Shown in pieces: positions 39,163-52,797 of a stretch of DNA of 64,000 bases; the stretch's first letter is position 1; each line of letters begins with the position of its first letter. Source of the stretch: Eledone cirrhosa (Eukaryota); the NCBI GenBank assembly GCA_964016885.1, contig OZ024741.1:270878001-270942000 (forward strand). Reading direction: 5' to 3'. A model generated the notes under the pieces. That model saw only the letters and a list, made by a program, of their open reading frames with translations, was not told where the DNA came from and ran no database searches. The translations under genes and the position numbers were made by a program.

Positions 39163-39767
39163 GTGTGTATTCATATACATACTAGTATTTCAGTATACAT
39201 ATATGGATGTACATTTTTAACTTAATTGTTTAAGCGTCAGTCATACAAAAGTGAGTTACAAACGAAACGAAATTTAATTTCGTTTCGTTATTTGTTTTTA
39301 TCGTCTCCGTTGAACCGGTACGTACTCACACTCTCTACAAATTAGTCTGCCCACTACTAATTTTCATAGAAAAAGCATATAACGATATGTGCTTTTACGA
39401 TTCTCCAGAAAGGCCGGTAGATAGGTAAATATTGCTGATGAGTTGTAACAACAACGAAACTAGTTCAATATTCCTTGTCTGGCTTTCTGGAGAATAGAGG
39501 AAAGGTGTTTCCTCAAAAACCAGTATGACTCTAAAAACCGGTTTGTCTGTGTGTTTACATACAGAATAGCTGGATACTCACAGTAAAGTAACCAGTGAAA
39601 GACTTGGTACATCTACATATGTATACGTGTGTGTATTCATATGCATACTAGTATTTCAGTATACATATATGGATGTACATTTTTAACTTAATTGTTTAAG
39701 CGTCAGTCATACAAAAGTGAGTTACAAACGAAACGAAATTTAATTTCGTTTCGTTATTTGTTTTTAT
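39163..39767 (+). mobile_element. Retrozyme-like element: 1.3 copies of a 466-nt non-coding unit with one HHR
   Basis: 39163-39301 repeated at 39629-39767; (TA)n on both sides; no ORF. Confidence 0.8.
39428..39472 (+). ncRNA. Type I hammerhead ribozyme
   Basis: AATATTG CTGATGA GTTGT-aaca-ACAAC GAA ACTAGT T CAATATT; stem I extended by TTCTCCAGAAAG/CTTTCTGGAGAA. Confidence 0.93.
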
Positions 39768-39839
39768 ATATATATATATATATATATATATATATATATA
39801 TATATATATATATATATATATATATATATATATACACAC

Positions 39840-42640
39840 AATGATATTCAATAAATGGAAACTATATTTATAAAACATATTTATTTTATTATATATATTT
39901 CAAGGGTACCAAGACAACATTGGTACGCTTTCATCAGATAAAATACAAAGTTTGTTTTATAAATAGAGACATACCCATGTAAATCATACCTTATCGGTTG
40001 GAAATTCACTGGATAGTGGAAATATATTAGGGATTATTCAAACTTATGTGTGAATATGCAAATGAATATGTAAATAATTGAAAAACAACCGTTTATTTAA
40101 ATGACACTGGAGTAAGAGAGAAAATATATAAGGGGATAAAGATAAAAAATATTACGAGAGAGATAGAGAGAAGAAATAGACAAGAGAGGATGAATAAAAC
40201 TCATATAACGTTAATTTGGGGGAAATATATTCTAAGTATATATCTTAATAGTACGTGTATTTACGATTATTAATTGTTTAAAATTCGTTTCTAATATAAT
40301 ATTTTCTGTTTTAAGTAGATAAATAAATAAATAAATAAATAAATAAATGAATAGATGGGTATATCATGTTATAGATAATTGTTTTAATGAGTTATGAGGG
40401 ATATTGGTTTTGTATTTAATGTAAGTAAATATTAAGTTAAATTAAATTAAATTAACTGAGTTAATAAGAATATTTATATTTATATATTTTAAAATGGGAA
40501 GATACGGAAAAACTCCAGTTTAGTTTATTTATTCGTTAGTATGAGACTATTTAGTATAAATTTTGAAAGATATATTTAGCCAGAATCAGTTAGTGGTTAT
40601 AAATCTGAGAACATTTTTAAAAAAATAATTTATAGGAGATAAGTAATTTTTAAAAGAGATAAAAAATTAAAGAGATAATAAATAAAGAATTAAAAATTAT
40701 TAAGATTAAAATTACAATTAAAATTAAAATTAAAATTAAAATTAAAATAAAAAAAAAATTAGAATTATATATGTATATATTTTATGAAACTTTAAGAAGT
40801 GAAATTATAGCAAATATTATAGATATGATTTAGAGACATCAATATATTAAAACCAAGTGGATAAGATTGTTATTAGAAATATTATAAGTGTAATTATAAT
40901 TTATATATAGTTCTAAATGTTGAATTCAGGCGATGTCTACAAGAATTAAATAAATTCGTTCTTAGATTAATAGAGTTCTTACATTTAAGTATGAAAAAAA
41001 TTTCCTCAACAAACAATTTGCAGAATCTAGATAAAGCTGTGTTTCGGTACGCGGGTGCTTTCGAAATTATTTCCGAAGCTAATGAATAGTCCATATTCTT
41101 GCATTTTAAGTTCCATATCAAGTTTGAAAGAGAAGTTGGAGATTTTTTATCAACTCTTTTGAAAGAGCATTTGTGATTATTCCATCGACTTTTAAATTCT
41201 GTAGAAGTTGCACCTACATAGTTAAATATATTATCACTGGTTTTGACTGTACATTTATAGACCTCGTCCTTATCTAAACACTTATTTTGTAAAGGACAGT
41301 TTAATTTAATTCTACAGTTACATTTTGCGGAGTTGTTGGATATTGCTAGAGATATTACTGCTATTTTGGTTATTTTGGTTAGGGTTTAAATTTCTATTAT
41401 TGATTCTATTTATATTTTGTGCTATGTTCATAGTAGTAGAGTAGGATAGTTTTATAGTATGTCTGTTAAAGATTGAGTGGTATCTGTGGGCTTTAGGAAA
41501 ACATTTATCTAGAGCTTTAAAGAATAGCTTTGCTAAAGGTGTTTTAACGCTTAATGAGAATGGGGGTGAGTACCAAATAATATTTCTAGTTCTAGTTCTT
41601 CTGTTAGTTTTAGAGTTTAAGTTAGATTTTAATTATAATTATTAGTAGGGTTATTTGCTTTGTTACTGTTGTCGATGTATTTAATCTTATTTATATAGCC
41701 TGCTCTATTTAAAGCTTCATTATAATATTCTGCCTTATCGTCAAAAATGTTTTTATTAGCGGAGATGCGTGAAATACGTTGTTGGATAGATTTGACAATA
41801 GTGTTCTTGATAGATCTAGGATGATTAGAGTTAAAACTTACATAGTTTAGATTCTCATTAATTTTATGGAATGGATAGTAGAGCCCTGTGTTAAGGTTTA
41901 ATGTTACGTCTAAAAAGTTAACAATTTTATAGTTATTCTTTATTTCTAACTTAAGGTTGTAGCTATTGAAGAATTGTATTATGGATTTTCTTTTTCTATT
42001 AATTTCACAATTACTATGATTTTCAATTAAAAGCAGCATATCATCACGATATAAACCACCGGTAATCTCTGGTATTTTTCTATGCAGTGTATTATTAATA
42101 AATAGCCCCACAAGATCCGTTATTTGCGCCGAGTCTGATGACCCCATGGTGATATCAAAATTATTTTTTCTATCAGCTCTAGTCCAGAGATGATTGTTGA
42201 ATTCAATTAAAATTTTCCGTGCGGTTAAAATGATATGCATTTCTTCGCTAGATAAATCTGCATGTTTAGATGCATAGACAAGAGCTTTATTAAGTAAATT
42301 AGGAGTAATGGAGGAGTAGTAGTTTGTAATATCCAATTGAATTAATTTTTTGTTATGTTTAAATTTTATGTTATTGAACCAATCTATAACTTCGTTAGTA
42401 CCGTTCCATAGTTTTAGGTAAGATATTTCTTTAAGTTACGGTATGATTCTATCTAATATATGTTTACTAACTATGCCTAAGTCTGATTTAGATGGTGCTA
42501 TAAGTCTGACTGGTAGTTCTATTTCAAAGTTTCTTTTGTGGTCTTTCAGGTTAATTTTCGGCCATCTAGGTATAAAGGGTTCGGTCCTATTTTCGATGCC
42601 TAATTTATGAATTATTTCAGAAGCTTCTCTATTTACCAAG
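39840..42640 (-). mobile_element. Penelope-like element (Naiad-like RT motifs), 5'-truncated, frameshifted, 1-kb 3' UTR
   Basis: KDHK..PVRLIAPSKSDLG, DITNYYSSI, MGSSDSAQITDLVG, GGLYRDD, FLDVTLNL; CNCRIKLNCPLQNKC; YVGAT; CRHR. Confidence 0.92.
39882..39945 (-). ncRNA. Type I hammerhead ribozyme in the PLE 3' UTR
   Basis: Reverse complement: TATTTTAT CTGATGA AAG-c-GTACCAA..TTGGTAC-c-CTT GAA ATATATAT A ATAAAATA. Confidence 0.9.
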
Positions 42641-42761
42641 GGGGGGGGGGGGGCTTAGAAATGAAGTTGAACAGAATTGAAACATGGATTACAGGTTGAA
42701 ATATAGTCTAGATAGATGTGAAACAAAACGAGGATGTAGTTTATGGAACACCCAAATGATT

Positions 42762-43228
42762 TAGAAGTCGACCTTAAGTGGGAGTAATAACATTAAGAAA
42801 GACATGAACGACACCATAACACTTTGTTTTGAAAATTTTGAAGGTAGGTTGGTTTATAAGTATGAATTTTCATAAGACTTTTGTAGTTCTTTCTGTGGCC
42901 TAGCAGTAGGTACTAGAGACGGTGGAAATCCTAGCCTTGGGTTCAATTCTGCTCAAGAGATGCATGTAACCTTTTTCAGTTTTTATTTTACAACCAATAG
43001 AAAAAAAACTGGAAAGGTTTACCGGGAAACCTACTCCCGACCAGGATCGAACTTCAGACTAGGATCACCACCGTCTATGATTCCTCCAAGTAGGTCACCG
43101 AGGCTGCTACAAAATTAAAATGAAAATTGATAATTATAAACCTACTTTCAAAATCAAAGTTAAAAAGATGTGGTGTCATTCATGGCTTTCCTAGAACTAT
43201 TAGTAATATTTAGGGTCGACTTCTGGAC
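42762..43228. other. Diverged inverted pair of tRNA-like (Pol III box A/B) units
   Basis: Left unit: TGGCCTAGCAG..GGTTCAATTC then T-runs; right unit (reverse): TGACCTACTTGG..AGTTCGATCC then a T-run; upstream blocks also align. Confidence 0.5.
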
Positions 43229-51633: not shown

Positions 51634-51850
51634 ATATATATATATATATATATATATATATAAATGAGGTAAATATCTCACTGAGTACTAAGTACCCATA
51701 GAGATATATAGGGTGTCTATAATATAATTGTTGTTCTATGGTACTAATTCGAGATACCAGAACTATAAAAATTGATGAGCAGAACAAACAAACATTAAAT
51801 AATCCTTTAAATGAATTAAAAAATGATTTAAATATCTACCTGTTCATAAT

Positions 51851-51929
51851 GCTATTACCGGCGGTTTCCATTTACAAAAGATTAGAAATTCAGAGAATTT
51901 CCAACGGAAAGTAAACTTCATCAGATAGC
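51851..51929 (-). ncRNA. Type I hammerhead ribozyme with long stem II
   Basis: Reverse complement: GCTAT CTGATGA a-GTTTAC..TTGGAAATTC-tct-GAATTTCTAA..GTAAAT-g GAA ACC-gcc-GGT A ATAGC. Confidence 0.85.
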
Positions 51930-52494
51930 TATTTCCATTCTATAGGACTTAAGTCCCACGGTCTGCAATTATAATGCCAACTACCTATATTATATATATA
52001 TATATATATATATATATATATATATATATATATATTATATATATATATATATATATATATATATATATATATATATATATATATATATATATATATATAT
52101 ATACAAGTGGAAGCTTAGTAAAATCGAAGCTTGTGCTGTGGCCAAGCAAAGTCGACCTACAATAGGAATGAGTTAGCAAAGCACTCAATAAGGGTAGGTC
52201 CTAGAGTAATAACATACGTTTAAATAGCTTGACAAATTGAACATTGCGTTAGGCAAAACCAACCACACAATACCAAAGTAAAGAAAGAATTAACAGGATA
52301 TATATATATATTTTCTAAAGAATGAAACAGTTCTAGTCCTGTAGAATCTCATCTATATTAAAACTTTTATACTCTGCAATGTATTGAGTACCTTACTTAC
52401 TGTGGTTACCTCCGACTCAACCCGGAATAACGTATATATATATATATATATATATTATATATAGAGAGAGAGAGAGAGAGAGAGAGAATGGAAA

Positions 52495-52797
52495 AAAAGG
52501 AAATTTCATTTCTCACTCTTAGTACGGCTGTTACTTAAATATAAGTATGTATACGTACATACATATATGTATACAGACGTACAGTAGTATGTATATATAT
52601 ATAATACTTGCACACATATATATATGTACGTATGGATTCATCGAACATTTATTATAATGCACGGTGTGTTTGTAAACAAATAGCCCGAATTAGTAGCCGT
52701 ACAGTGTTCGGCAACCATCGTTGCCCTTTTGTTCAACACTGACTAAGGAACGATGAACTAGTTTCTAACTTATTAGCTGTCATCAGCATATACGTTT
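52495..52797 (-). mobile_element. Third permuted copy of the 429-nt unit, HHR at about 52753-52789
   Basis: Reverse complement: ATG CTGATGA cAGCTaataAGTTa GAA ACTAGT T CAT, continuing through the monomer junction. Confidence 0.85.

Follow-up and report, generated by a model that had tools for sequence, protein, structure and literature searches.

Non-long terminal repeat (non-LTR) retrozymes of animals, described from coral, mussel, and axolotl (PMC7229834) and from vertebrates (bioRxiv 10.64898/2026.07.22.740005), carry a type I hammerhead ribozyme in each non-coding tandem unit, have a GC content below 45% and strong self-pairing, and are dispersed in thousands of copies, monomers to multimers, in genomes where Penelope-like elements (PLEs) co-occur. 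Copying of a circular template by a PLE enzyme was proposed for them earlier from co-occurrence and partial homology (PMC7229834; bioRxiv 10.64898/2026.07.22.740005). PLE insertions have hallmarks of their own, an inverted 5′-truncated arm and a tail at one end only, and those of the Hydra clade target (TA)n; the combination of tail and inverted ends has no in vivo mechanism to account for it (PMC8557442). In work with a purified PLE, both DNA strands were cut and extended, with synthesis beginning at two internal positions of the RNA that mark the limits of the tail (PMC11167929). Here we describe a family of hammerhead-bearing repeats of Eledone cirrhosa that shares features of both systems, in a 64-kb window (the whole stretch analyzed, 64,000 nt; contig OZ024741.1, positions 270,878,001–270,942,000, assembly GCA_964016885.1) and genome-wide.

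Judged by its genomic copies, this is a new non-LTR retrozyme family with non-random permutation. It has all the non-LTR retrozyme features tested (no search was made for a primer-binding site or polypurine tract), and by anatomy it appears to work like a PLE passenger, with no alignable homology to the pseudo-LTRs (pLTRs) of PLEs among the matches listed. From insertion anatomy, copy number, a conserved fold, read-through of the cut site, and unit identity within insertions, all directly seen, we propose with a probability of about 0.7 that the retrozyme is a non-autonomous non-LTR element whose hammerhead-cut, circularized RNA is copied by a Hydra-type PLE enzyme into (TA)n from two priming sites, X and Y. 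We found no published description of the family or of a paired-end rule in retrozymes; the supplements of two retrozyme papers, which possibly list cephalopod retrozymes, lay outside the search. Thousands of young insertions carry a PLE signature on a non-coding ribozyme unit. The value of the finding is mechanistic evidence on animal retrozyme mobility, and a direct test can now use a small RNA with a cut site and exactly placed start sites.

Units and their conserved fold

The window holds copies of two units, A (466 nt) and B (429 nt), which a sequence-only reading had taken for diverged homologs, present as a 1.3-mer and a 1.1-mer, each unit with one hammerhead and no open reading frame (ORF). 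All of this held. Because 39163–39301 recurs at 39629–39767 (138 of 139 letters identical), the A copy is a 1.3-mer; the B copy, with 48 of 50 matches across its period, is a ∼1.1–1.2-mer. When both units are rotated to begin at the cut site, A and B are identical in 288 of 416 columns (69%), with an alignment score of 262 against a shuffled maximum of 71. The longest ATG-initiated ORF around the circularized units is 50 or 68 amino acids, so the units are non-coding. An autonomous PLE was rejected, as the unit encloses no ORF with reverse transcriptase (RT) and GIY-YIG domains, and so was a tRNA-derived SINE: neither A nor B has a consensus match to Pol III A/B boxes, and the family has two 3′ ends instead of a single one.

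Table 1. Retrozyme copies, their parts, and neighboring PLE features, in window positions (X and Y are the 3′ end sites defined in the text)
Feature	Position	Strand	Details
Family A copy, 1.3 units of 466 nt, single arm	39163..39767	+	3′ end at X; (TA)n flanks
A internal start-site domain	39219..39331	+	Y in small hairpin loop ∼39227–39232; helix 39249–39255/39325–39331 encloses hairpin and X (39301)
A rod and type I hammerhead	39400..39495	+	Stem I 39428–39434/39466–39472; core from 39435; stem II 39442–39455; predicted cut after 39465 (GUU)
Broken Hydra-type PLE, RT and GIY-YIG (neighbor, not retrozyme)	39840..42640	-	Stop and frameshifts; own minimal hammerhead at 39937
Family B copy, ∼1.1–1.2 units of 429 nt, single arm	44452..44930	+	3′ end at Y; (TA)n flanks
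B internal start-site domain	44521..44592	+	Helix 44521–44528/44585–44592 encloses hairpin and X (44560); compensatory change in a B subfamily
B rod and type I hammerhead	44653..44739	+	Core from 44684; predicted cut after 44714 (GUA)
Half-unit B copy	48105..48322	+	Unit positions 62–275 after the cut; ends at X; without hammerhead
Head-to-head pair of PLE termini (neighbor)	48368..48818	.	Hammerheads 48464 (-) and 48629 (+); one arm with, one without ∼90-nt tail; anatomy like retrozyme insertions
Older B-type copy, 0.7 unit	52496..52799	-	Crosses cut site; core at 52786; stem I damaged (fold z +1.1); end near X

Both hammerheads are of canonical type I, with core, stems, and NUH site all found, and each caps the tip of a long rod (fold z of −4.8 in A and −2.4 in B). 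Their matches to Rfam Hammerhead_HH9 (A, 38.6 bits, E 3e-6; B, 19.7 bits, E 0.008) are under the gathering score of 52. The stem I and II pairings claimed from sequence stand, with the qualification that the base of stem II in B is a U-U mismatch. Two further copies had been read as running through the monomer junction. The older B-type copy does cross the cut site, with its stem I damaged, whereas the half-unit copy crosses only the arbitrary start of the copy at 44452. Rfam matches to miRNA families in the window score under their gathering thresholds and were dismissed as noise from TA hairpins.

Genome-wide, the hammerhead pattern of the family has 39,810 matches against 2 for a reversed control, and the exact patterns of A and B have 9,694 and 6,393, respectively. 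If each hammerhead marks one unit, the retrozyme makes up an estimated ∼0.5% of 3 Gb; with ∼40,000 hammerheads, it is a sizeable genome component. Unit lengths of subfamilies are 420–538 nt and monomers have a GC content of 0.35–0.37. Cores are intact in 149 of 150 A pieces and in 136 of 164 pieces of the older family B. In subfamily C (loci L203, L207–L210, and L213), units of 456–538 nt contain an expandable internal TA hairpin. Contigs of four sequencing runs of unrecorded type contain the unit; one of these runs may itself have supplied the window, and its depth says nothing about expression.

Six natural cut-to-cut monomers, folded as circles, gave z-scores of −6.6 to −10.1 (25 shuffles each) and a common branched shape. 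Across 34 monomers, 17 base pairs changed on both sides, compared with 0–2 in a control with partners slid. Four such pairs were found within A and seven within B/C; many of the 17 go back to the one split between A and B and so do not count as independent events. These patterns indicate that selection acts on the RNA or ribozyme of the family.

Two fixed 3′ ends and paired arms

Unit positions are numbered from the predicted cut, and an end is the sense 3′ end after which (TA)n begins. Copies had been read as circularly permuted. For 5′ ends, which scatter, mapping on the circularized unit agrees. The 3′ ends are not free: they fall at two fixed sites, X (302 in A, 275 in B) and Y (222–235 in A, ∼213–219 in B), which are 60–70 nt apart and are both followed by TA runs. 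In arms taken in genome order with a seed pattern just upstream of X, 24 of 42 A arms end at X, 16 at Y, and 2 elsewhere; the corresponding numbers for 51 B arms are 26, 17, and 8. Four B arms (L028, L116, L130, and L148) end at unit position 76–81, a possible minor third start site. One compensated base pair belongs to a helix formed between sequences on either side of X, which places X within the functional RNA. As further evidence for the start-site domain of A, contigs of one sequencing run have loose TA ends at 39227, 39301, and 39698.

Arms are often paired head-to-head, and this two-armed anatomy, which points to a PLE enzyme, was overlooked in the sequence-only reading. A census of 115 loci (10 duplicate loci and matches of <80% identity dropped) yielded 65 head-to-head pairs. 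Among the 52 classifiable pairs, 51 have one X and one Y end, one is YY, and none is XX (p 2e-14). A count based on position only, which took the first 100 X ends and the 66 Y ends as far as 130 Mb along one contig and partly shares insertions with the census, gave 33 XY pairs out of 35; the two other cases are neighboring, separate insertions. At the junctions of the 65 pairs, arms overlap by 1–7 nt in 22, are flush in 8, have 1–24 extra letters between them in 20, and overlap further in 15, whose boundary is obscured by palindromes. The repeats at the termini are not LTRs but partial tandems that vary in length. Empty target sites are represented by one usable case (L042), in which the related copies also carry a TA run. 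Retrozymes and PLEs are nested in each other's (TA)n flanks and clustered (L114, L050, L134, and L017).

This anatomy is that of Hydra-clade PLEs (PMC8557442) and of Poseidon PAc (PMC11167929), which likewise show (TA)n targets, partial tandems, an inverted 5′-truncated arm, a tail at one end only, two internal start sites, and a hammerhead that is read through. Unlike PLEs, the retrozyme has no ORF and its arms reach many laps. The tail is 60–70 nt long, compared with 30–40 nt in the published descriptions of PLEs cited here and ∼65–90 nt in PLEs of this genome, and the hammerhead lies 215–300 nt upstream of the start sites rather than ∼55–150 nt. Relative to other metazoan retrozymes, units (known here from genomic copies) are slightly longer than the published circles of 170–400 nt. 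The parts of those sources that we cite make no mention of two fixed 3′ ends or of X/Y arms placed head-to-head: a count of the words "inverted" and "target site" in the main text of PMC7229834 gives 0 for each, and the cited portion of bioRxiv 10.64898/2026.07.22.740005 does not describe such arms. Non-autonomous Chlamys elements, such as MRC1, are also PLE passengers with multicopy head-to-tail insertions; unlike the retrozyme, they have 3′ ends similar to those of their autonomous partner, and most Chlamys elements are without a canonical hammerhead (PMC8557442).

Inversion by priming from both strands has another precedent. In twin priming of L1, a single RNA is primed from both target strands, with a variable second site and no overlap between the copied parts. 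In the retrozyme, by contrast, neither site varies, and each of the two arms is a repeated copy of the same sequence.

Template and enzyme

In the mechanism that we propose, tandem transcripts would be cut by the hammerhead into monomers of ∼420–540 nt that are likely ligated into circles, by analogy with retrozymes of coral, mussel, and axolotl (PMC7229834). A PLE enzyme, presumably a Hydra-type Penelope reverse transcriptase/endonuclease acting as a dimer, would cut both strands of a (TA)n target and copy the circle into it, using a single RNA to prime one strand at X and its counterpart at Y. Each of the two cDNAs would travel anywhere from 0.1 to many laps round the circle before their far ends were joined, in many cases through short microhomology. 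Priming at X and Y on opposite strands would therefore leave two arms in head-to-head orientation, one ending at X and one at Y. Such copying of a single predicted circular RNA by a Penelope-type RT, started on either side of the cut DNA, is the likely reason for the back-to-back tandem arms with two fixed ends. The earlier suggestion of reverse transcription from a circular or multimeric hammerhead RNA fits all of our genome-wide tests.

Arms run through the cut site. Among 63 arms long enough to reach it, 61 cross, and most arms are 0.2–3 units long in a range from 0.1 to >42. A linear cut monomer would limit X arms to 0.65 and Y arms to 0.5 units, yet arms reach 7–30. A circle could be mimicked without ligation if the enzyme jumped from the 5′ end to the 3′ end of the same linear monomer, the ends of which stem I pairs and could hold together. 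Occasional failed jumps would fit the 5′ ends of A, which stop at the cut site seven times when 2.1 stops are expected over 206 passes (p 0.007; window chosen by us); B has no such excess. But seven stops are few against 206 passes, junctions are letter-perfect over many laps in an insertion where 18 of 18 units are identical, and the RNA of related animal retrozymes is found mostly as circles in vivo according to the cited part of PMC7229834. We regard such jumping as distinctly improbable.

Units of one insertion resemble each other. In A, divergence is 0.3–0.5% inside an insertion (0.33% between opposite arms) and 2.6% between loci, units being closer within in 27 of 28 insertions; in B, it is 4.5–5.2% inside and 6.6% between (closer in 22 of 28). 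In the insertion just mentioned, with arms of ∼7 and 13 units, all 18 full units are identical on both arms and have three letters absent from other sampled loci, and in another insertion 6 of 6 units are identical. As proposed for vertebrate retrozymes (bioRxiv 10.64898/2026.07.22.740005), such arrays might instead be dispersed minisatellites, short PLE-like insertions later grown by unequal crossing-over and gene conversion, and DNA-level reshaping is indeed visible in several large arrays. That account would cover later growth of arrays but not their spread or fixed ends. With most arms as short as they are, with a 12-unit and a 6-unit array near star-like, as if born at once, and with inverted arms sharing variants irrespective of lap, we find it hardly credible.

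The test of laps asked whether units of the same lap on opposite arms share private variants more than units of other laps. Across 38 A insertions (one shuffled 30-mer excluded, and long arrays excluded from rates), 91 minor letters were in all copies of an insertion and one was shared by a same-lap pair only. Opposite-arm units differ by 0.72% when of the same lap and by 0.60% when not. In 23 B insertions, 18 variants were insertion-wide and three same-lap-only. The pattern favors repeated reading of one monomer and matches what copying of a single circular monomer would predict.

The same PLE enzyme and sites could also operate on a read-through transcript of a young tandem array, long, linear, and left uncleaved, with no circle involved. 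In vitro, an anole PLE worked predominantly on unprocessed RNA (PMC11167929), there are homogeneous arrays with as many as ∼20 units, and the modest enrichment of A 5′ ends at the cut site and the three same-lap-only variants of B also speak for such a template. However, because mutations arise in single units, a linear route should pass on lap-specific variants, of which A has one against 91 insertion-wide. This route also requires up to 12–15 intact, conserved hammerheads to be left uncut, and it can neither regenerate array length nor explain selection on the ribozyme. We consider it unlikely.

The genome has a potential supply of enzyme for copying of a circular monomer. A first look found 45,403 PLE candidates, of which 144 were scored, and PLEs of this genome carry DKT and CxCx5C, motifs of the Hydra clade, which is the element class that, to judge by anatomy, would supply the retrozyme enzyme. 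One locus (L232, 1781–4009) has an uninterrupted Hydra-type ORF of 743 amino acids, preceded by its pLTR and an inverted arm, and is a candidate source. Three PLE families in the sampled loci have two ends each, and 10 of 11 of their pairs are XY. Retrozyme copies are not bound to a PLE ORF: pieces of such ORFs occur in only 17 of 180 retrozyme loci, with none continuing from a retrozyme end in the contexts viewed. No PLE carrying the retrozyme as its pLTR was found among the matches listed for 30 RT loci or in eight further loci with long ORFs. In Xenopus, 21 of 57 retrozyme families are homologous to a PLE pLTR (bioRxiv 10.64898/2026.07.22.740005). Unlike those families, the retrozyme has no alignable sequence in PLE pLTRs beyond a short motif, among the matches listed (30 loci of one PLE group; other families by eye). 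The enzyme class is therefore drawn from anatomy. The motif, GAGTG-like, lies ∼22 nt after Y and begins the X-enclosing helix in both retrozyme and PLEs (by eye); as a link between their ends, it is suggestive only.

Several points weigh against our reading. The RNA circle, its cleavage, and the partner enzyme are predictions, and no homology to a PLE terminus beyond the short motif, among the matches listed, points to a particular partner family. In vitro, the purified PLE used unprocessed RNA and had no strand preference between its two start sites (PMC11167929). Twelve of the 65 pairs have one end at neither site (one more ran off the sequence edge). B signals are weaker than those of A in unit divergence, the test of laps, and core integrity, and a linear transcript of a young homogeneous array would give an identical outcome in the test of laps. 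Large arrays were also reshaped at the DNA level, as seen in a duplication of four units, in arrays of ABAB and period-3 order, and in the 30-mer, which has shared variants.

Higher-order arrays of B (ABAB in L131 and L121; period 3 with >42 units in L132/L133/L241) are probably products of unequal crossing-over at a later time. In L241, every third hammerhead does not match the pattern. Origin of the ABAB arrays from a dimer circle is unsupported: neither unit type is found in the opposite arm of L131, and L131 differs from L121. L211 was considered as a fourth array with alternating spacing and set aside, as it differed by only a few letters.

A wider form of the proposal, to which we give slightly less than even odds, is that a dimer of Penelope RT settles on one circular ribozyme RNA, with one of two fixed sites serving each cut DNA strand, that both subunits roll round this circle, and that the rule of one X and one Y generally accounts for the tail and inverted ends of PLEs. 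If so, each insertion would be a DNA record of a single circular RNA molecule, and circles of 430–470 nt would be a minimal substrate with which to prove the rule for all PLEs.

Neighboring elements

The protein of the broken PLE beside the A copy has its best named relative in Argonauta hians (39%); Pfam gave a weak GIY-YIG match only and no RT match. An inverted pair at 45027–45830 belongs to another hammerhead-bearing element (core at 45264, minus strand), probably of a further PLE-type family. Other PLE-type termini are at 46200–46360, 46560–46670, 50560–51640, 52840–53045, and 54543–54692, including several inverted pairs, and most have minimal hammerhead cores. At 659–10661, the window also contains a 49-bp satellite of ∼206 copies with 93% matches.

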